From: Escherichia phage vB_EcoS-613R10
DNA: 38,680 nucleotides
Sequence record: ON470590
Strand: one strand, 5' to 3'
Of the stretch, positions 2,859 to 25,212 are shown in pieces. The notes under the pieces are model-generated. The model was not told the origin of the DNA, ran no database searches, and saw only the letters and a program-made list of their open reading frames with translations. Numbering within the stretch: position 1 is the first letter of the stretch; each line of letters starts with the position of its first letter. A program made the translations under genes and the position numbers.

Positions 2859-5451
2859 TTGCATATTCCTTAGCCCAGCGGGGCAGTGATAACGTCTTAA
2901 TAGCTGGCCATTCATCGGTATTGAGGCAGTCAGCCAGGGTTCGCAGATTGCGGTGATATTCCAGCTGACCTGCCAGTTTTGCTTCTTCGCCCATCATGAA
3001 AATTTCAACCGGATAACGTCCGCATTCAATAGTTGTGCTGGCAACCAGAAAAACGAAAGTTGGCTGCACTCCAAACTGTGCTTCATAACCGTCACTGTAG
3101 AATGCATCCTGAACGTGATAGCGGTAGTCGTAATAAGCGGTTTTGAATCGTTGAATATCCGCCGTAGTTTTCACGTCCATGATCCAGTGAAATTCAGGGA
3201 TAATTTTGTCCGGACGGCACCGACACAAAATTGCTGTTTCAGGATCTTCCCAGTAAATTGATGATTCAGCGTGTCCGGCGCTTTCAACAAGCCATTGCCC
3301 CAGCGGCAAAGCCATAACGCTCTGATACATGAGTTCAATTTTCCGGCCTTCTTCGGCAGTGATAACCGTTTTTCCTGTGCTTGCGCATTCCCTCAGAAAC
3401 GCTTTCTCTTCTTCTTTTCCGGAGTTTGTCCGGCGGTTAAATTCAGGTGCTACGATAAAGCGGTTACTGAATTCTTCCGGCTCAAGTACCCGGCAGTGGA
3501 AAGCGGTTCCTAAATCGAGCGTTTTTGTCTTTGTGGTGTCCACGGGGGCATTTTTACGCCACAAATACAGTGCCGGAGTATCAGCAATGTCATCGAGCTG
3601 AGACTTACTGACACCGGGACCCGCGTGGTAATTCTCATTCGAAATTCCGTAATAAATACCTGGCTCTATGTCTTCTACGATTACGGGATCTGCGACTTCG
3701 CCAGTTTCATCACTGCAATCGCGATGCGGATCGCTGCCAGCATTCTCATTGTGCGGATGTTCAGCGCCTTCCATTTCCTCCGGATCATTTTCCTTAGCTT
3801 CAACCTGACTCTCTTCATCGAATGTTTCCTGGTATGTTGCGTCGCCCATCACCGCACCACAGTCAGGGCAGTTATCCCCGCCAGTCTGGCCGCAGGCATT
3901 GCAGGCTATTTCCGGTTCCTGTTGCACTACTGGCTCAGGTTGATTCATATCCGGGCTGGTTTTTTCCGTTTCTGGCTGGTTCTGGTACACACAATCGCGA
4001 GTCTGGATCCCCTTTACCCATTTCGGATCGTTCGGGTCGCTAATTCCGTCAACAAATTCACCACGTGATGCAGCAAGCAATTTATCGGCATCGACAGGAT
4101 TTTTTGATGGAATGTTTTTCCGGGCTTCATGGAGTTCTGCCCGCAGTTCCTGATATTTCGCATCAACAGAATTTACCTGTGACTGAGCATCCAGCGGCTG
4201 CGTGTCCTGATGATGTTCAGTTGCGTCCGGTTCCATTGTTTCAGCCTCTCCCTGTTCAACTGCCGTTGTTCCAGATGGTTGCGGTTTTTCTTCATCATCC
4301 TGTTTTCCTTCTTCTGTTACTCGCTGCGGCATCGGGGCAGAGGAGCGACCGCAGGCAATATCCACGATTTCCGGATCAGGGTTGGCATGATCGGTTTCAG
4401 TCAGTACTTTGTTCAGATATTCAGTGACGTGCGCGGGGATGACCTCGATCCCAATTGGTGCTTCTTTTACGGACGCAACCACGATGGCGCGGGAATAATC
4501 CAGCCCGCCAGGCATGGTGATGAATTTGTCGCGGAAAACAGAAAAGGGCGGTTTATTTTCAGCGATAATTTCCTCAATGCGTTTAGCGTGTGCCGGATGA
4601 AGGTTATAGATGTCCAGATCCATTGAACGGGCCAGTACGCCAGTGGCTACGTCGCGCGCCAGTGACGTCAGATCGTGTACGAAACCTTCGCCGCGATCGG
4701 TGAGGTTTCCGCCGCCAGCATTAGCACCGGAAGCCGTGCGAGTGATGTGTGAAACACGATTACCCTTCATCCACTCTTTTGTCAGCAGTCCTCGATCGGT
4801 GTAGTCAGCGTTCAGGTATGCTTCGAAAAAAGCAGTTATCAGTCCCAGGTTTGAATTACCAGGATTAGGGAAAACTTTGTCAGTGTCACGAACCAGTTTG
4901 TGGAGTTCGCGAATTTCCAGCGGGTCGAGCAGGCTGGTTTTGTGGGAAACAGCCAGGGCAGTAACAGCCGGTAGTTCTTCAGCCCGAGCAATGTGTAATG
5001 CCTGGAGTCCGTCGCGTGAAACGTGCGTTACCGGTTTTTCGCTGCCGTGTTGAGCAAGCCAACGAATGGGCAGTTCCTGGCCAGAAATTGGGAGTAGCAT
5101 ATTCTCCTCAATCTCAGTCATGTCTTCGCCGTTGACGTTGGTATTGCCTTGATAGTGAGCGTTGTCTGGTGCTGCTCCCGGTTTTAGTTCCCATGTCATG
5201 GAGTCTTTGCTGAGTTGATAGCGTTCACTCCAGGTAAAATCGATCTCACCTTCAGCGGGCAGGTCATTAACGACAGGAAAATTCGTGGCAACAGCTTTAA
5301 AATAGCTGCTCAGTTTTTTACCTGACTTAACGATCAGGTAGTCCAGAGTGGCACAGGTCGATTCAAAATCGTTGCTTGCCCACAGGACGACGTCAGGTTC
5401 ACCGGATGATTTTTTCGCTTTCCGTAACAGGAAGAGTGGTTTTGTGCTCAT
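2851..5451 (-). CDS. recE: Exodeoxyribonuclease VIII RecE
   Basis: 866 aa ORF; recognised as Rac RecE; its stop overlaps the recT start. Confidence 0.96.
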
Positions 5452-5552
5452 TGTTTTTTAACCTCAACTCAGATTAAAATTCGTTTTGTTCAGTGAATGA
5501 TCTTGCCGGATACACACTGTTCATAGCCTGCGTCATACGCAGGCTATTTCTT

Positions 5553-5828
5553 TCAGATTTCACCTTTTAATTTCATTGCAATTAGAGTTGCCAGAAATTC
5601 GGCTTTTTTTTCTGTGGGCAGATTCTTTCCGATATGCACCAGGCACATTTTTTTGACACCTTCATCAAGTGTTTTTACGTTGCCTGATGGACCATCGATA
5701 TCAACCACAGTGAATGGGGTTTCTTTATTTTCTGTTTTAATTACGTAGCCAATGCGCTTTCCTTCCAGATTCACCTCGTGAACAATGTCATCGGTAGTTA
5801 CAACAGTGGCTTCATAATTGGTAATCAT
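5553..5828 (-). CDS. racC: Rac prophage protein RacC
   Basis: 91 aa from internal ATG (MITNYEATVVTTDDIVHEVNLEGKRIGY...); recognised as RacC. Confidence 0.85.
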   Translation of the reverse strand: MITNYEATVVTTDDIVHEVNLEGKRIGYVIKTENKETPFTVVDIDGPSGNVKTLDEGVKKMCLVHIGKNLPTEKKAEFLATLIAMKLKGEI

Positions 5829-5902
5829 GTTTTTCTCCTTAATTAAGGTTGAGCGAATACCTGCCATTTCTGGCATAAATTCAGTTTCGAATAGTCAATT
5901 AA

Positions 5903-6073
5903 TTAAAGTTCATGTGCCATCTGGTCTTTTTCGGCACAAGCTTCACTGCAATATTTTCTCGGTTCGTCTTTTGATAAAATCCCGTGCATGAAGTGAAGCA
6001 TTCTTTCAATAGCTTTGCTTTCTTCAACGTCTTTTTTGCAAAGGTGGTAAGCACATTTTATTTTCTTAGTCAT
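5903..6073 (-). CDS. ydaE: Small Cys-rich protein YdaE
   Basis: Hand-translated 56 aa [59 protein letters not shown]; below the 60 aa cut-off of the ORF track; start overlaps the kilR stop. Confidence 0.8.
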   Translation of the reverse strand: MTKKIKCAYHLCKKDVEESKAIERMLHFMHGILSKDEPRKYCSEACAEKDQMAHEL

Positions 6074-6294
6074 CACCATGACTCCGCCTTTACAGGTAAA
6101 CCATCACGACCGAGGAAGACTTTAATCATGCGGTCAGTAATGCATGTTTTTGTGGTCAGGTTACGAATATATAGTTTTCGCTTTTTAATATTGTTTGCCG
6201 AGGCAATATATGTCCGGCCTTCATGAAGAACATAATCGCCAGGAGTCACACACTGACGTGGTATTTCATCAGTTCCGAAGTGATGTGCAATCAT
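6073..6294 (-). CDS. kilR: Cell-division inhibitor KilR
   Basis: 73 aa from internal ATG ([29 protein letters not shown]...); recognised as KilR. Confidence 0.9.
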
Positions 6295-19196: not shown

Positions 19197-19333
19197 AATC
19201 TTAACTACAATATGATTCATTTTGATGATTGTTTCATAAGGAACAGTGAAGTAAGATCTAAGAGGAGTTAAATTTTATACAGTATAATCATAATATTGCA
19301 GCAAGGTGGTTATAATTGAAAGAATATTTAGAT

Positions 19334-20791
19334 ATGAATACATCTCATGTAAGAGTTGTTACTCATATGTGTGGGTTCCTGGTTTGGCTCTATAGTCTTT
19401 CAATGTTGCCACCAATGGTTGTAGCATTGTTTTATAAAGAAAAAAGCCTGTTCGTTTTCTTTATAACTTTCGTTATATTTTTTTGCATTGGTGGCGGAGC
19501 GTGGTATACAACTAAGAAATCTGGCATTCAATTACGTACCCGTGATGGGTTTATTATAATTGTAATGTTTTGGATTTTGTTTTCTGTTATTAGTGCATTC
19601 CCTTTATGGATTGACTCAGAACTTAATTTAACGTTCATTGATGCTCTGTTTGAAGGGGTTTCTGGAATAACAACAACAGGAGCAACTGTAATTGATGATG
19701 TTAGTTCATTACCTCGGGCATATTTGTACTATCGGTCACAGTTAAATTTTATAGGTGGTTTAGGAGTTATTGTTCTGGCGGTTGCTGTATTGCCATTATT
19801 GGGTATTGGTGGTGCAAAGCTTTATCAGTCAGAAATGCCGGGGCCATTTAAGGATGACAAACTCACTCCCCGCCTGGCCGATACGTCACGGACACTGTGG
19901 ATAACTTATTCTTTATTAGGTATTGCTTGTATTGTCTGTTATAGACTTGCAGGAATGCCTTTGTTTGATGCTATTTGTCACGGGATTTCCACAGTTTCGC
20001 TTGGTGGTTTCTCAACTCATAGCGAGAGTATCGGATATTTTAATAACTATTTGGTTGAGCTGGTGGCTGGTTCTTTTTCCCTGCTATCGGCTTTCAACTT
20101 CACTCTTTGGTATATTGTTATTAGCAGGAAAACGATAAAACCTTTAATCAGAGATATTGAACTTCGTTTCTTTCTGTTAATAGCCTTAGGGGTGATCATT
20201 GTTACCTCTTTCCAGGTCTGGCATATAGGTATGTATGACTTGCATGGAAGTTTTATTCATTCGTTTTTTCTTGCCAGCTCCATGCTCACTGATAATGGTT
20301 TAGCTACGCAGGATTATGCAAGTTGGCCCACGCACACGATAGTGTTTTTGCTGTTGTCAAGTTTCTTTGGGGGATGTATAGGTTCAACTTGTGGTGGAAT
20401 TAAGTCACTTCGATTTCTTATACTTTTCAAACAAAGCAAACACGAGATAAATCAGCTTTCTCATCCCAGAGCGTTGTTGAGTGTAAATGTAGGAGGGAAG
20501 ATAGTTACAGATCGTGTAATGAGGTCTGTATGGAGTTTCTTTTTTCTTTATACTCTCTTCACGGTGTTTTTTATACTGGTGTTAAATGGTATGGGATATG
20601 ATTTTCTTACATCATTTGCAACAGTGGCTGCATGTATTAATAATATGGGATTAGGTTTTGGGGCTACTGCATCGTCATTCGGAGTGCTTAATGACATTGC
20701 AAAATGTTTAATGTGCATAGCTATGATTCTTGGTCGCCTTGAAATTTATCCTGTTATTATATTGTTTTCAGGTTTTTTTTGGCGCTCCTAA
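19334..20791 (+). CDS. trkG: Potassium uptake protein TrkG
   Basis: 485 aa from ATG at 19334 (MNTSHVRVVTHMCGFLVWLYSL...); polytopic membrane protein recognised as Rac TrkG; visibly AT-rich. Confidence 0.95.
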   Translation: MNTSHVRVVTHMCGFLVWLYSLSMLPPMVVALFYKEKSLFVFFITFVIFFCIGGGAWYTTKKSGIQLRTRDGFIIIVMFWILFSVISAFPLWIDSELNLTFIDALFEGVSGITTTGATVIDDVSSLPRAYLYYRSQLNFIGGLGVIVLAVAVLPLLGIGGAKLYQSEMPGPFKDDKLTPRLADTSRTLWITYSLLGIACIVCYRLAGMPLFDAICHGISTVSLGGFSTHSESIGYFNNYLVELVAGSFSLLSAFNFTLWYIVISRKTIKPLIRDIELRFFLLIALGVIIVTSFQVWHIGMYDLHGSFIHSFFLASSMLTDNGLATQDYASWPTHTIVFLLLSSFFGGCIGSTCGGIKSLRFLILFKQSKHEINQLSHPRALLSVNVGGKIVTDRVMRSVWSFFFLYTLFTVFFILVLNGMGYDFLTSFATVAACINNMGLGFGATASSFGVLNDIAKCLMCIAMILGRLEIYPVIILFSGFFWRS

Positions 20792-20928
20792 TATATGGCT
20801 GATTTATAATTGTGAGTTTAATATTATGTTGACTCACTCATTGATCCAATACCTAACTTTACCAGCAACACCTCCGTCCCCAGTAGCACTGGCTGCTGGG
20901 GTGCGTTTTATTCATAAAGCAAGGCTGT

Positions 20929-21720
20929 ATGAGCGAGAAATTAAAGATAGTCTATCGCCCATTACAAGAATTGTCACCGTATGCGCACAACGCCAGGACG
21001 CACAGTACTGAGCAGGTGGCACAACTGGTAGAAAGTATTAAGCAATTCGGCTGGACTAATCCGGTGCTGATTGACGAAAAGGGCGAAATTATTGCGGGTC
21101 ACGGTCGTGTTATGGCGGCTGAAATGCTCAAAATGGATTCTGTTCCGGTCATTGTTCTGTCTGGCCTGACGGATGAGCAGAAAAAGGCGTACCGCCTGGC
21201 AGATAATCGCCTGCCGATGAATGCTGGCTGGGATGAAGATCTGTTGCGGATGGAGCTGTCGGACCTAATCAATGCTGATTTTGATGTCTCCCTGACAGGC
21301 TTCATCCCGACAGAAATTGATGAACTGTTGACGGATGTTTTGCCCGGTACAGGAAATGAGGAGGAGCCGTATACGACGAAAATTGATACGCCTGTTTATG
21401 AGCCGTCGGGCGGTAAACCGGATATCAGTGAACTGTACGACGATACGAAAACTCAGGAGCTGATCAGCCGGATACGTTCGGCGTCCCTTGAGCCTGATAT
21501 TGAGAAATTCCTCCTGTGTGCGGCAGAACGTCACACGGTGTTTAATTTCAGCAGAATTGCGGACTATTACGCTCACGCCCCCTCTGAAATTCAGTGTTTT
21601 TTCGAGGAGTCGGCGCTGGTGATCATTGATTATCAGCAGGCTATTGAAAATGGATTTGTCCGGATGACGCAGCGCATGGTGGAGATCATGCATGGTGGTG
21701 AGGAGGAGGAATATGCGTGA
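20929..21720 (+). CDS. ParB-like nuclease domain protein
   Basis: 263 aa; N-terminal ParB/sulfiredoxin-type region with the IAGHGR motif; C-terminal ~170 aa unassigned. Confidence 0.75.
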   Translation: MSEKLKIVYRPLQELSPYAHNARTHSTEQVAQLVESIKQFGWTNPVLIDEKGEIIAGHGRVMAAEMLKMDSVPVIVLSGLTDEQKKAYRLADNRLPMNAGWDEDLLRMELSDLINADFDVSLTGFIPTEIDELLTDVLPGTGNEEEPYTTKIDTPVYEPSGGKPDISELYDDTKTQELISRIRSASLEPDIEKFLLCAAERHTVFNFSRIADYYAHAPSEIQCFFEESALVIIDYQQAIENGFVRMTQRMVEIMHGGEEEEYA

Positions 21721-22645
21721 TGATTTTTGCGCCTTTATTCTGACTCACGGGCGACCGGACAAAGTTCTGACTTACCGGACGTTGCGTCGTGCTGGCTATA
21801 CCGGGAAAATTTTTATCGTTGTTGATGATGAAGATAAGACACGGCATCAGTACATGGCTGAATTTGGGGAACAGGTGCTGGTGTTTTCCAAAGCCGATAT
21901 CGCCAGTCGTTTTGACGAAGCCGATAATTTCTGTGACCGCCGCTCAATTTTTTACGCCCGTAATGCCTGTTTCGACCTGGCAAAACTGGTCGGGTGTAAA
22001 TACTTCATTCAGCTCGATGATGATTATCACGAGTTCCAGTTTCGGGTGGATCGCAACTATGACCAGGCCTATTTTCCGATAAGGAAACTGGATGCGATCC
22101 TTTCTGAAATGCTGGCGTACTACGAATCAATACCTGCTCTTTCCATCGCTATGTCGCAGGGCGGGGATTTTCTTGGTGACAATGGCGGCCATGCTTCGTG
22201 GGTGAAACGCAAGGCAATGAACAGCTTTATCTGTTCGGTTGAACGACCGTTCTCATTCATGGGGCGCATTAACGAGGATGTGAATACGTACACGAATCTC
22301 GGTCGCTGTGGTGAATTGTTTATGACGATCGGTGCTGTCCAGTTAGGGCAGAAACAGACGCAGAAAAACAGCGGCGGAATGACCGAGCTGTATCTGGATT
22401 CCGGAACCTACGTTAAAAGTTTTTACTCCGTCATGTATGCGCCGTCGTGCGTAAAAATCTCACTGATGGGTGCCAGCCATAAACGCATTCACCATCAGGT
22501 CACCTGGAACAACGCTGCAGTAAAAATCCTTCACGAAAAATACAGGAAGAAGACACCCTGCATATCAATGGGGGTGACAAATGATTCCGTATTCGAAAGT
22601 CGAGTCTCTGGCAGCGTGCCGGATGACTGCACAACAAATCGCTGA
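21713..22645 (+). CDS. Uncharacterised protein with two acidic DxD-like motifs
   Basis: 310 aa from ATG at 21713 preceded by GAGGAGGAGGA, overlapping the ParB-like stop; FIVVDDED and IQLDDDY motifs after hydrophobic strands, which could suggest a nucleotide-sugar transferase fold (weak inference). Confidence 0.65.
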   Translation: MRDDFCAFILTHGRPDKVLTYRTLRRAGYTGKIFIVVDDEDKTRHQYMAEFGEQVLVFSKADIASRFDEADNFCDRRSIFYARNACFDLAKLVGCKYFIQLDDDYHEFQFRVDRNYDQAYFPIRKLDAILSEMLAYYESIPALSIAMSQGGDFLGDNGGHASWVKRKAMNSFICSVERPFSFMGRINEDVNTYTNLGRCGELFMTIGAVQLGQKQTQKNSGGMTELYLDSGTYVKSFYSVMYAPSCVKISLMGASHKRIHHQVTWNNAAVKILHEKYRKKTPCISMGVTNDSVFESRVSGSVPDDCTTNR

Positions 22646-22832
22646 CGTTCTGGATGTTGATCTGAACCGACTGAAAGAAAATCGGGAAGCAATGACAGAT
22701 TTTTATGCGGCCATCCGTAAGGGCAGAGCGAAAGGTGAAGCCGAGTTACGAGCGGCATTGTTTAAGCTTGCCAGAAAAGGGGATGCCTTTGCTCTGCGCG
22801 AACTACTCAGGGTGGATAAAAATCAGGACTAA
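22581..22832 (+). CDS. Small hypothetical protein upstream of small terminase
   Basis: 83 aa; SD GGGGGTGA before the ATG; overlaps the 3' end of the upstream gene by 65 nt; ends 4 nt before the terminase small subunit. Confidence 0.45.
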   Translation: MIPYSKVESLAACRMTAQQIADVLDVDLNRLKENREAMTDFYAAIRKGRAKGEAELRAALFKLARKGDAFALRELLRVDKNQD

Positions 22833-22835
22833 CTG

Positions 22836-23930
22836 ATGAGCAGACCGGACTGGGGGGCGTTGCAGCAGGAGTATATTGCTGAATACACCCGCTCCGGTAT
22901 ATCTCCGGTGGCATGGTGTGAAGCAAGGGGACTGAATTACGCAACAGCCCGTCGTTACATCAAAAAAACTCCGAAAAATGCGCAGACAGAAATGTGCAAA
23001 ACTGCGCAAAAAAGTGCGCAGAAAAAATCTGCGCAGACTGCACAAAAGCGGAACGAAAAATCTCAGGAAAAAAAGCCAGTATTCGATGCGGGCCTGAATG
23101 AGGGCGACGCGGAGGAATTTTCGTTCTGTCCCGATGAATTCGGCATTTCTGACCAGCAGGCTAAGTTTGCGATGCTTGTTGCTCAGGGTAAAAAGCCGAC
23201 AGAGGCGTACCGACTAGCCGGTTATGAGGGGCAAGGTGCGACAGCTAATAGCAACGCCAGTCGTATGCTTAGAAATGCCAGGGTTTTTCGCGCTATCAGC
23301 TACTTCCGCAATCAGTACCAGAAACGCTATACCGCAGACCTGGATTTACTAGTGAGTCAGTTGATGGCCATTGTCCTGGCCGACCCCAATCAGCTTGCAC
23401 AATTTCGCCGTGTTAACTGCCGTTATTGCTGGGGCGAGAATCATCTCTACCAGTGGCGCGATATAGCAGAATTCGACAAGGCAGCGGCGCAGGCTTCCAG
23501 AGATGGCAAACCCGAACCGGAATATGGAGGCCTCGGCTTTGTTGATAACGCCATACCCAATCCGGACTGCCCGAAGTGCTGCGGTGAGGGAACGGGACAG
23601 CTTTATATGGCTGATACCACTCTGCTTGATGGGGATGCGCGGCAATTATATGCAGGGGCAAAATTCGGAAAATTCGGCGTTGAGATCCTGCTGGAGGATA
23701 AGGCTGCCGCCCGGCGTGAATTGTTGCGTTTGCTTTCTGCTGGCGGGGCTTTATGTGCAGATAAGCGGCTACAGGAACTGGAAATTGAACGGCGCAGAAT
23801 GGAAAACCAGAAGCTGCGCAAAGAGATCGAAACGGTGGAAGATAATGAACATCCCCAGCCTGTGGCGATCAATATTAATGTGGTTGATGCCAGAGTAAGG
23901 AGTGATGAAGATGATCTCTCCGACGCTTAA
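22836..23930 (+). CDS. Terminase small subunit
   Basis: 364 aa immediately upstream of and overlapping the large subunit; N-terminal HTH-like region; lysine-rich linker. Confidence 0.7.
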   Translation: MSRPDWGALQQEYIAEYTRSGISPVAWCEARGLNYATARRYIKKTPKNAQTEMCKTAQKSAQKKSAQTAQKRNEKSQEKKPVFDAGLNEGDAEEFSFCPDEFGISDQQAKFAMLVAQGKKPTEAYRLAGYEGQGATANSNASRMLRNARVFRAISYFRNQYQKRYTADLDLLVSQLMAIVLADPNQLAQFRRVNCRYCWGENHLYQWRDIAEFDKAAAQASRDGKPEPEYGGLGFVDNAIPNPDCPKCCGEGTGQLYMADTTLLDGDARQLYAGAKFGKFGVEILLEDKAAARRELLRLLSAGGALCADKRLQELEIERRRMENQKLRKEIETVEDNEHPQPVAININVVDARVRSDEDDLSDA

Positions 23931-25212
23931 TGTGCCTCAGGCGCGATTTCTTTCAATGCCCCATAAATTTAAAGCCTATATTGCTGGTTTTGGCTCGGGC
24001 AAAACATGGGTTGGGTGTGGCGGCATATGCAAGGGGATTTGGGAGCATCCAGGTATAAATCAGGGATATTTTGCGCCAACGTATCCCCAAATTCGCGATA
24101 TTTTTTACCCTACAGTGGAAGAAGTTGCTGCTGACTGGGGATTGAACGTAAAAATTAATGAGGGAAATAAAGAGGTTCACTTTTATTACGGACGCCAGTA
24201 TCGGGGAACCACTATCTGCAGATCGATGGAGAAGCCACAAACGATCGTCGGTTTCAAAATTGGTAATGCGTTGGTGGATGAACTGGACATTTTGCCGAAG
24301 GAAAAAGCCAGAACGGCGTGGCGCAAGATAATTGCACGTATGCGTTATAAGATTGATGGACTTCGCAACGGTATTGACGTTACAACCACGCCGGAAGGAT
24401 TCAAATTTGTCTACGAGCAGTTTGTTAAAGCCGTGCGTGAAAAAACAGAGCTGGCCTCACTGTATGGTCTGGTGCAGGCATCTACTTTCGATAATGAAAA
24501 GAACCTGCCAGCAGATTACATTCCTTCGCTTCTTGAATCATACCCTCCAGAGCTGATTAAAGCCTATCTTCGAGGACAGTTTACTAACCTGACAAGTGGT
24601 ACTGTTTACCATCAGTTTGACCGGAAACTGAATAATTGCGAAGAAGTGGAGCAGCCAGGGGAGCCGATTTATATTGGGATGGATTTTAACGTTGGAAAGA
24701 TGGCGGGAATCGTCCATGTGCTGCGTTTGGGGCTTCCATGTGCGGTAACTGAAATCATCAATGCCTACGATACGCCGGATATGATCCGCATCATTAAAGA
24801 ACGCTTCTGGCTGTATGATGGGAATGATTACCGGAAAGTGAGGGAAATTTATATTTATCCAGATGCTTCCGGGGATTCCAGAAAATCAAGTAACGCAAGT
24901 ACGACGGATATAGCCCAGCTTAAGCAGGCTGGTTTTAACGTTGTGGTGAACAGCTCGAACCCGCCAGTAAAAGATCGCGTTAACTCAATGAATGCAATGT
25001 TCTGCAATGCCAATGGTGAGCGTCGCTATAAAGTTAATGTGAAGCGTTGCCCGTTATATGCCGAATCTCTGGAGCAACAGGTCTGGGATGAGAAGGGGGA
25101 GCCTGATAAAAAATCTGGCAATGATCACCCGAATGATGCCGGAGGTTATTTCATCGTTAAGCAATTCCCTATTGTCAAACCGACCGGAAGAGTCACATCA
25201 CTTCGGATTTAA
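23902..25212 (+). CDS. Terminase large subunit
   Basis: 436 aa; Walker A motif AGFGSGKT; followed by the portal gene. Confidence 0.85.
   Translation: MMKMISPTLNVPQARFLSMPHKFKAYIAGFGSGKTWVGCGGICKGIWEHPGINQGYFAPTYPQIRDIFYPTVEEVAADWGLNVKINEGNKEVHFYYGRQYRGTTICRSMEKPQTIVGFKIGNALVDELDILPKEKARTAWRKIIARMRYKIDGLRNGIDVTTTPEGFKFVYEQFVKAVREKTELASLYGLVQASTFDNEKNLPADYIPSLLESYPPELIKAYLRGQFTNLTSGTVYHQFDRKLNNCEEVEQPGEPIYIGMDFNVGKMAGIVHVLRLGLPCAVTEIINAYDTPDMIRIIKERFWLYDGNDYRKVREIYIYPDASGDSRKSSNASTTDIAQLKQAGFNVVVNSSNPPVKDRVNSMNAMFCNANGERRYKVNVKRCPLYAESLEQQVWDEKGEPDKKSGNDHPNDAGGYFIVKQFPIVKPTGRVTSLRI

Follow-up and report, generated by a model that had tools for sequence, protein, structure and literature searches.

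A ParB-like protein and a TAGT-family glycosyltransferase encoded as a coupled pair upstream of the terminase genes of a Rac-type prophage: a candidate DNA-modification module

Introduction

Upstream of the terminase genes of Escherichia phage vB_EcoS-613R10 (sequence record ON470590) two overlapping open reading frames (ORFs) are found, of which the first encodes a ParB-like protein (ORF A) and the second a glycosyltransferase (ORF B). The question raised by this locus is why the two are coupled and on which molecule they would act. The DNA that was analysed, here called the window, is 38,680 nucleotides (nt) long and corresponds as a whole to a full-length Rac-family lambdoid prophage of E. 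coli. It had originally been predicted that the pair could be a DNA-modification or anti-restriction module, a packaging accessory or a defence system. The present analysis supports this cautious interpretation and sharpens it: DNA modification is now the favoured reading, and the packaging and defence options fit the data poorly. By analogy with ParB-dependent thymine dioxygenases, the pair is best explained as a ParB-assisted enzyme that would glycosylate phage DNA late in infection, a reading to which we give a probability of about 0.5. Judged by its sequence, the pair would then join two known kinds of protein, the TET-associated glycosyltransferases (TAGTs) and the ParB-assisted DNA-modifying enzymes.

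Results and discussion

ORF A and ORF B encode a ParB-like protein and a TAGT

ORF A (20929..21720) is full-length ynaK and encodes an acidic protein of 263 amino acids (aa) with a ParB/sulfiredoxin (Srx) N-domain, a conserved linker motif and a C-domain that will be called the TAGT-partner domain. ORF B (21713..22645) encodes a protein of 310 aa that belongs to the TAGT family and has a GT-A fold. Both ORFs, like the terminator-like hairpin before them and the terminase genes behind them, lie on the plus strand, and the two assignments are based on the reading frames together with their profile matches. Because of their Pfam and PHROG matches, both ORFs are regarded as real genes and not as chance reading frames. 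The ATG of ORF B (21713-21715) falls within the final codons of ORF A, the TGA of which occupies 21718-21720. The resulting 8-nt overlap of start and stop, ATGCGTGA (21713..21720), as well as the Shine-Dalgarno of ORF B, GAGGAGGAGG, which lies within the 3' end of ORF A (21700..21709), were read directly, and the overlap is as originally described. A longer reading of ORF B (317 aa) from an upstream ATG at 21692 was rejected, since the homologues all start with MRDDFCAF and PGAP uses 21713.

ORF B matched the Pfam family PF20691 (TAGT) over residues 8-222 with 120.6 bits against a cut-off of 27.5 (E 1.1e-34) and phrog_842 with E 1e-103. PF20691 was carried by every ORF B homologue listed. The fold is of the single Rossmann-like GT-A type, which bears out the nucleotide-sugar transferase-like fold that had been suspected from two aspartate-rich motifs, FIVVDDED (residues 34-41) and IQLDDDY (residues 99-105). 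The Asp residues of both motifs proved to be invariant: in 24 homologous sequences of 59-82% identity R14, D38/D41, D102-D103-D104-Y105 and N187-E188-D189-V190 did not vary. They are the counterparts of the R...DDD...ED(Y/F) motifs for catalysis and metal binding, the third motif reading EDV. The R...DDD...ED motif set has been described by Pyle et al. for phage DNA GT-A enzymes (bioRxiv 10.1101/2023.12.21.572611). Family, fold and motif invariance are therefore firm. The C-terminal half of ORF B (residues 151-288), on the acceptor side, is basic (isoelectric point (pI) 9.5) and is highly conserved yet poorly predicted structurally. A profile search of PDB sequences found no solved TAGT structure, the sole match being at chance level.

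The E. coli ORF B carries a C-terminal extension of ~22 aa (22580-22645) that is not present in the homologues of 285-290 aa and that overlaps an ORF of 83 aa.

The pair is an obligate module

The pairing was counted from both of its sides. In the TAGT-side sample, which took one genome per species, all 27 loci had an ORF with the C-domain immediately upstream on the same strand. These loci came from Enterobacteria, Bacteroidota, Lachnospiraceae and other Firmicutes, Desulfovibrionaceae, Prosthecochloris, Hyphomonadaceae, Opitutia, Saccharibacteria and other metagenome-assembled genomes (MAGs). An initial scan of IMG/VR with the TAGT alignment had given near-identical E. coli prophages only and was replaced by the per-species scan and a partner-domain scan. 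The latter, an independent IMG/VR scan led by a distant sequence, yielded 80 diverse viral loci, 79 of them testable. A TAGT gene was located downstream of the C-domain in each of the 79, directly adjacent in 68 and behind one inserted gene in 11. Of 101 loci examined for it, 98 had the TAGT start overlapping the 3' end of the partner gene, in most cases by 11 or 8 nt. The hosts belong to many bacterial phyla and include that of one haloarchaeal virus, HHTV-2 (gp21/22). The pair was also found in the Lactobacillus phages phi jlb1 of L. gasseri (024/025) and c5 of L. delbrueckii (ORF1/2, directly after cos), in Nocardia phage NTR1 (Orf1/2), and in Porphyromonas phages and 191-kb Vibrio phages. 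Across phyla both proteins remain ~50% identical, and their substrate should therefore be universal. The obligate pairing and the conserved overlap are firm observations, and from these comparisons the two genes are regarded as an obligate, ancient and translationally coupled module. This agrees with the proposal that they form one unit. By adjacency, overlap and co-evolution (see below) the ParB-like gene is co-oriented with and specific for a putative DNA-modifying enzyme.

The pair was originally placed between the lysis cassette with trkG and the terminase, and gene order and profile matches agree with this. Terminase small and large subunit genes followed the pair in about two thirds of the loci, and in c5 the pair lies beside cos. 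Such a position would be expected of a packaging accessory, that is, a ParB-like nuclease (as databases label ORF A) or DNA-recognition factor that aids the terminase at pac or cos, with the glycosyltransferase as incidental cargo. HNH proteins are known to assist the terminase in HK97-like phages. However, the terL genes behind the pair belong to at least four unrelated families (Terminase_3, Terminase_6N, GpA and T7-like). In Vibrio and Lachnospiraceae phages the pair is located among replication genes; in Vibrio phage pv27 and at locus L101 its neighbours are primase, exonuclease, helicase, DNA polymerase I and clamp-like genes. Moreover, partners that lack the ParB N-domain exist, and the glycosyltransferase was never missing from the 79 loci and is translationally coupled to its partner, which argues that it is not incidental. 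The genomic slot of the pair and its independence of the terminase type are thus firm, and a role as packaging accessory is very improbable.

The C-domain of ORF A tracks the glycosyltransferase

The C-terminal half of ORF A had been left unassigned, and so it has stayed: residues ~145-255 gave no match in Pfam, NCBIfam or PDB sequences. Designed armadillo repeats, which appeared as relatives in the profile search of PDB sequences, were discarded as the matches were spurious and summed. Within the family this part of the protein (residues 145-255, 21361..21693) is nevertheless well defined. It contains the linear motif Y148-[TS]-x-K-I-x-x-P-x-Y157-E-P, in which Y148 and Y157 are conserved in 100%, T/S149 in 98% and K151 in 91% of 149 family representatives. 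A downstream block is kept equally well in the same representatives (R201 100%, H202 99%, Y214 99%, Q222 95%, E226 99%, S228 99%, D234 100%). The linker that carries Tyr148 and Tyr157 is predicted to be disordered. The family comprises about 1,189 clusters at 50% identity and is found essentially only beside this TAGT clade. Among the 149 representatives 106 have a ParB N-domain according to our own hidden Markov model, 19 more have a G[HNQS]xR motif and 14 consist of the C-domain only; genuine C-only partners are the Vibrio phage partner (140 aa) and that of L101.

The distances between C-domains correlated with those between the TAGTs (Mantel r 0.69; 0.54 among distant pairs). For the ParB N-domain the correlation was 0.27, and -0.02 among distant pairs, though N- and C-domain share one polypeptide. 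The co-evolution is firm, and together with the pairing and the conservation of the C-domain it suggests that residues 145-255 are a TAGT-specific partner domain and that the ParB N-domain is an exchangeable accessory; they are treated as such here.

The ParB N-domain is related to DNA-modifying enzymes

The N-domain of ORF A (residues 1-135, 20929..21333) has the ParB/Srx fold and matched ParB_N with E 9e-7, while the full-length protein matched phrog_620 with E 1e-90. This is in agreement with the ParB/Srx-type N-terminus that had been recognized from IAGHGR (residues 55-60) in the 263-aa protein. Its motifs are N21, G57-H58-x-R60 and D92-N93. In about 124-138 aligned family representatives the box II G-x-x-R and box III (D/E)-N motifs are kept at G57 (98%), H/N58 (92%), R60 (80%) and N93 (80%), less strictly than the residues of the C-domain. 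The GHGR of ORF A aligns with the GERR of Noc.

ORF A thus shares the N-terminal fold and the box II-type G-x-x-R and (D/E)-N motifs with the canonical ParB, Spo0J, Noc and KorB clamps. It differs from them in having GHGR for GERR, in being acidic, and in lacking a helix-turn-helix (HTH), a sequence-detectable dimerization domain, ParA and parS. No HTH or C-terminal dimerization match was found in ORF A by profile searches, no parA is annotated in the Rac-type prophage, and the partition family TIGR00180 reached 38 bits against a cut-off of 58 bits and covered the N-domain only. ORF A is therefore not a canonical ParABS partition protein. In databases it is called 'chromosome (plasmid) partitioning protein', 'transcriptional regulator' or 'ParB-like nuclease'.

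The relatives of the N-domain point to another process. This domain matched phrog_498 with E 9e-51, and its subtype recurs, with up to 56% identity, at the N-termini of phage DNA methyltransferases. A tblastn search with residues 1-139 retrieved 429 phage records, of which the best non-self matches (50-56% identity) are annotated as adenine or DNA methyltransferases. In PADLOC, ORF A matched the type II methyltransferase model (MTase_II) with E 1.5e-38, though in the ParB part of the model only (positions 13-151 of 436). The ParB-methyltransferase fusion of Verrucomicrobia phage P8625, the one fusion that was checked, occupies the pre-terminase slot as well, two genes upstream of terL. Fusions of phage ParB-CTPase domains to N6_N4 methyltransferase, Methyltransf_23 and several domains of unknown function have been reported to bind varied nucleoside triphosphates (NTPs) by Kaljevic et al., PNAS 2025, a paper whose main text never uses the word 'glycosyltransferase' (PMC12704722). 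The kinship of the ORF A N-domain with these fusions is firm. Unlike in the fusions, the catalytic module here is a separate, translationally coupled glycosyltransferase that appears, by sequence, to be recruited via a dedicated partner domain.

These relations bear on the proposal that the pair is a prophage anti-phage defence or superinfection exclusion system, or serves plasmid-type partition. The pair looks like a prophage accessory, and the name 'partition protein' would suit the latter function. Yet no PADLOC system model was matched, ORF B giving no match and ORF A matching only the ParB part of the methyltransferase model. In addition, the pair occurs in virulent phages (c5 and the 191-kb Vibrio phages) and has no promoter of its own. 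Partition would further require what was not detected, namely parA and an HTH or dimerization domain, and the prophage is integrated. This explanation is extremely improbable.

Comparison with ParB-dependent dioxygenases and known TAGTs

The closest parallel is provided by the phage thymine dioxygenases. As shown by O'Toole et al., PNAS 2026, one subclass of these 5-methylpyrimidine dioxygenases (5mYOX) requires a cognate ParB-like protein, which combines a nucleotide-binding with a C-terminal domain, lacks a DNA-binding domain and is needed specifically on double-stranded DNA (PMC13229309). ORF A is likewise a phage ParB/Srx-type protein without an obvious DNA-binding domain, encoded beside and specific for an enzyme that would modify DNA after replication. 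The 5mYOX/ParB clusters are often found near glycosyltransferase and terminase genes, and their cognate-pair specificity is seen here as co-evolution. In contrast to that system, the enzyme is a predicted GT-A glycosyltransferase of the TAGT family and not an Fe/2-oxoglutarate dioxygenase, no 5mYOX is present, and the C-terminal domain of ORF A is distinct, tracks the TAGT and can occur without the ParB N-domain.

The TAGT family includes the T2/T6 enzyme that adds a second glucose to glucosyl-5-hydroxymethylcytosine (5hmC) and is of GT-A type (PMC13216743). Phage GT-A enzymes encoded beside a C5-methyltransferase and TET glycosylate 5hmC, and ParB-like genes have been noted among the neighbours of phage glycosyltransferases (bioRxiv 10.1101/2023.12.21.572611). 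ORF B has the Pfam family, the GT-A fold, the R...DDD...ED motifs and the phage origin in common with these known TAGTs (T2/T6; Burke 2021, Pyle 2024). Known TAGTs, however, need 5hmC, made by deoxycytidine monophosphate (dCMP) hydroxymethylase or by C5-methyltransferase plus TET, or a sugar on it, whereas the ORF B clade occurs in small phages without such a pathway and possesses an extra conserved basic C-terminal region. The T-even homologues were not recovered by tblastn with ORF B at E 1e-5, and genes for a dCMP hydroxymethylase or for an alpha- or beta-glycosyltransferase, in whose company the T-even enzyme acts on glucosyl-5hmC DNA, are absent from the prophage, c5 and phi jlb1. The product name 'beta-glucosyl-HMC-alpha-glucosyltransferase' given to ORF B homologues (PHROG-derived) is therefore probably a mis-transfer. 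Other homologues are named 'GREB1-related protein' (UniRef, newer PGAP/RefSeq) or 'hypothetical protein'. GREB1 contains a TAGT domain as ORF B does, but it is a large eukaryotic protein that acts on estrogen receptor alpha, and the name carries no functional information for the phage enzyme. No support was found for the functions that these database product names ascribe to ORF A and ORF B.

On which molecule does the pair act?

Several lines of evidence argue for DNA as the acceptor. The characterized microbial TAGTs act on DNA, in the second glucosylation of T2/T6 and in the glycosylation of 5hmC (PMC13216743). The kinship of the ParB N-domain subtype ties the pair to DNA modification, and the pair is placed upstream of terL or among replication genes. 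The pairing and co-evolution, the ParB requirement of a 5mYOX, the basic C-half of the TAGT, the conservation across phyla and the tailoring-type genes inserted at some loci (see below) fit this reading as well. In the proposed mechanism ORF A and ORF B would constitute a self-contained, translationally coupled module that is expressed alongside the late packaging genes. ORF B would be the catalyst, a competent inverting-type GT-A glycosyltransferase, and probably the part that contacts the DNA; its donor in E. coli would probably be a housekeeping nucleoside-diphosphate (NDP) sugar, e.g. UDP-glucose. The C-domain of ORF A with its Y-T-x-K-I-x-x-P-x-Y-E-P motif may dock on, or complete, the C-half of the TAGT. 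By analogy with ParB-5mYOX and KorB-KorA, the ParB/Srx N-domain could be an NTP-binding switch or clamp that holds or activates the enzyme on double-stranded DNA. The complex would glycosylate replicated, concatemeric phage DNA before or during packaging, and the sugar on the progeny genomes would protect the injected DNA, once in the next host, from restriction or other defences against nucleic acids. The physical complex, the DNA acceptor, the timing and the protective role are what we infer. Iyer et al. (2013) reportedly defined the TAGT family and are said to have proposed that ParB directs modification enzymes. The suggestion of Aravind that ParB proteins direct modification apparatuses to the DNA during packaging has been repeated by Burke et al. 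(PMC8256090).

Several observations weigh against this explanation. The partner is strongly acidic throughout the family (median pI 4.4-4.7), profile searches revealed no recognizable DNA-binding domain in it, and the AlphaFold2 (AF2) models are moderate, with predicted local distance difference test (pLDDT) values of 63 and 66. To our knowledge every characterized TAGT transfers to a hydroxyl group, either of 5hmC or of a sugar attached to it, and we know of no enzyme that glycosylates canonical, unhydroxylated DNA. Yet no association with an enzyme that produces 5hmC or 5-hydroxymethyluracil (5hmU) was found in the three complete genomes considered: the annotations of the Rac-type prophage, c5 (31.8 kb) and phi jlb1 (38 kb) list neither a TET/JBP gene nor genes for a thymidylate-synthase-like hydroxymethylase, a DNA polymerase or dNTP metabolism. 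Neither ORF A nor ORF B matched TET_JBP. The absence of annotated precursor genes is firm as such; it relies on the deposited annotation, and in c5 none of the unknown ORFs that remain exceeds 209 aa. As the carrier phages do not seem to produce 5hmC or 5hmU, a DNA acceptor would have to be a canonical group, and this is the weakest step of the explanation.

The alternative that profits most from this weakness is protein glycosylation, in which the TAGT would O-glycosylate its own partner at Tyr148, Tyr157 or Thr/Ser149 in a glycogenin-like manner, or another universally conserved protein, and the ParB-like protein would be the substrate or carrier instead of the subunit that targets DNA. The two tyrosines, being invariant in a linker that is predicted to be disordered and that holds the nearly invariant T/S149, may indeed be acceptor sites and not docking residues, which counts against the DNA reading as well, as does the animal TAGT-domain protein GREB1, which O-GlcNAcylates a protein (PMC7968844). 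According to the annotation a hydroxylated base is not available in the carrier phages. The co-evolution of the C-domain with the TAGT would likewise be expected of a substrate, and glycogenin was among the GT-A structural neighbours of ORF B, albeit as a generic match. On the other hand, we know of no process in phages for which a glycosylated ParB-like protein is required, the subtype of the N-domain is otherwise joined to DNA methyltransferases, the placement among replication and packaging genes indicates DNA, and invariant linker residues are equally expected of a docking motif. Protein as the acceptor is unlikely on balance, but it is kept in consideration because no enzyme is known, to us, to glycosylate unhydroxylated DNA.

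The universal substrate could also be a different molecule, such as RNA or tRNA, a nucleotide cofactor or signal, or a cell-envelope polymer, modified for counter-defence or host takeover with the ParB/Srx protein as a nucleotide-binding or kinase-like regulator. Given the late-operon placement in temperate phages, the proteins would be made too late to serve takeover or counter-defence within the same cycle, and no lysogen-type promoter is present. Neither protein is annotated as membrane-associated or matches a membrane-protein family, no transmembrane or signal-peptide prediction having been run; in this they differ from the seroconversion glycosyltransferases, which are membrane-associated. 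The link to ParB domains of the DNA-methyltransferase type would also be left unexplained, and this possibility is considered improbable.

If DNA glycosylation is taken to be the function, the pair may be the first DNA glycosyltransferase system without a hydroxymethylated precursor, in which the sugar is placed directly on a canonical exocyclic N or O or on a phosphate. This further step is tentative and rather doubtful. The composite enzyme would then consist of the TAGT and the partner domain, delivered by the ParB/Srx NTP switch. Such a precursor-free system would exist in tailed viruses of Bacteria and Archaea, including prophages in about 16-29% of the complete E. coli genomes. With DNA as the target, the pair would glycosylate DNA by a new route that involves neither 5hmC nor 5hmU and would bear on the evasion of restriction, CRISPR and type IV defences, on sequencing artefacts in prophage DNA and on enzymatic tools for DNA labelling. 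With the partner protein as the target, it would represent a viral system for protein glycosylation that is new. In both cases the module is directly testable in E. coli.

In a recent survey about 65% of the mined glycosyltransferase contigs had no neighbouring base-modification enzyme, which was left unexplained (bioRxiv 10.1101/2023.12.21.572611), and 288 of 753 phage genomes have been described as carrying a 'solitary' TAGT (PMC13216743). Our results indicate that the members of one large and deeply conserved TAGT clade are not solitary, but have an obligate partner that is missing from current domain libraries. In the literature no paper was found that treats PF20691 or 'glucosyl-HMC' transferases and ParB as a pair. 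The dedicated partner domain, the strict two-gene coupling from viruses of Bacteria to those of Archaea and the occurrence without a hydroxymethyl-base pathway appear to be undescribed.

Position of the pair in the prophage and its expression

The gene order of the prophage was taken from a RefSeq genome that is 100% identical across the queried 1.7-kb region. It runs intR-xisR-recET-kilR-sieB, replication genes, lysis cassette, trkG, ORF A and ORF B, terS-terL, and head and tail genes. A terminator-like intrinsic hairpin at 20878..20901 (10-bp stem with seven GC pairs, followed by a T-tract) closes the trkG moron, and no sigma-70-like promoter was found between this hairpin and ORF A. These two features suggest that the pair is read through on the late transcript into the terminase genes; it is probably transcribed by read-through from the late operon.

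Downstream, the small ORF of 83 aa (22581..22832; the equivalent of the PGAP start is 22623) overlaps the 3' end of ORF B, shows a partial match to a terS-like PHROG and is kept upstream of terS in enterobacterial relatives. It is followed by the genes for the terminase small subunit (22836..23930) and large subunit (23902..25212). The trkG gene itself (19316-20901) is a potassium transporter moron that separates the lysis cassette from the late structural operon and has its own strong terminator.

Inserted and neighbouring genes at other loci

Where genes are inserted in or fused to the pair, they look like tailoring steps of a modification pathway. A gene with His_Phos_1 and cytidylyltransferase-like parts (E 6e-38 and 2e-13) was found in eight loci, including L122, L150, L152, L165, L167, L174 and L189. 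In L150 this part is apparently fused to the partner protein, and in L117 a cytidylyltransferase-like protein alone lies between partner and TAGT. Synthesis of the NDP-sugar donor or trimming of a phosphorylated product is a plausible function of this gene. A class I S-adenosylmethionine-dependent methyltransferase is inserted between partner and TAGT in L172 (Methyltransf_23-like), in L188, where the same assignment was made by inference from a near-identical locus, and in L145, where only Methyltransf_11/12 matches were obtained. In L106, a Hyphomonadaceae MAG, a Methyltransf_23-like methyltransferase is fused to the C-terminus of the TAGT (3581-5272) and a second TAGT paralogue follows (5190-6158), which suggests multi-step glycan tailoring.

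Two further neighbourhoods were noted. In Dysgonomonas macrotermitis (L090, 785-4043) genes for an SNF2-like helicase, a PAPS-reductase-like protein (SFSGGKDS) and a small ParB-like protein (DGFHR) lie upstream of the pair. This cluster resembles a second ParB-associated module of the IbrA/IbrB type in the same phage. In a Prosthecochloris MAG (L087, 2-2665) ORFs resembling C5-cytosine and N6-adenine (NPPF) methyltransferases precede the pair at a distance of a few genes; among the few ORFs of this locus that were inspected, by eye and without a profile scan, there was no dioxygenase in the interval.

Occurrence and annotation in E. coli

Among 5,426 complete E. coli genomes the region was matched in 1,580, and 889 have kept at least 80% of its length. 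In K-12 only the first ~254 nt of ynaK are left and are joined to ydaY. PGAP calls the intact 263-aa ORF a pseudogene ('ynaK, incomplete, missing C-terminus') of which it annotates the first 258 nt only (L001, 20001-20258), leaving the remaining ~0.5 kb unannotated. Apparently the truncated K-12 ynaK served as the reference, which would make this call an artefact. The truncation in K-12 and the pseudogene mis-call are probably the reasons that the module has been overlooked.

The partial matches in a spread sample begin, all but one, at nt 1 of ynaK and end at 231, 254 (K-12), 349, 421-438, 496, 785, 919, 1261 or 1481, sometimes at insertion sequence elements. A deletion hot spot at ynaK codons ~163-166, considered in view of four fusion proteins, was weakened by this spread of truncation endpoints. 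In decaying Rac prophages trkG and the 5' end of ynaK are kept, and the module and the structural genes are deleted.

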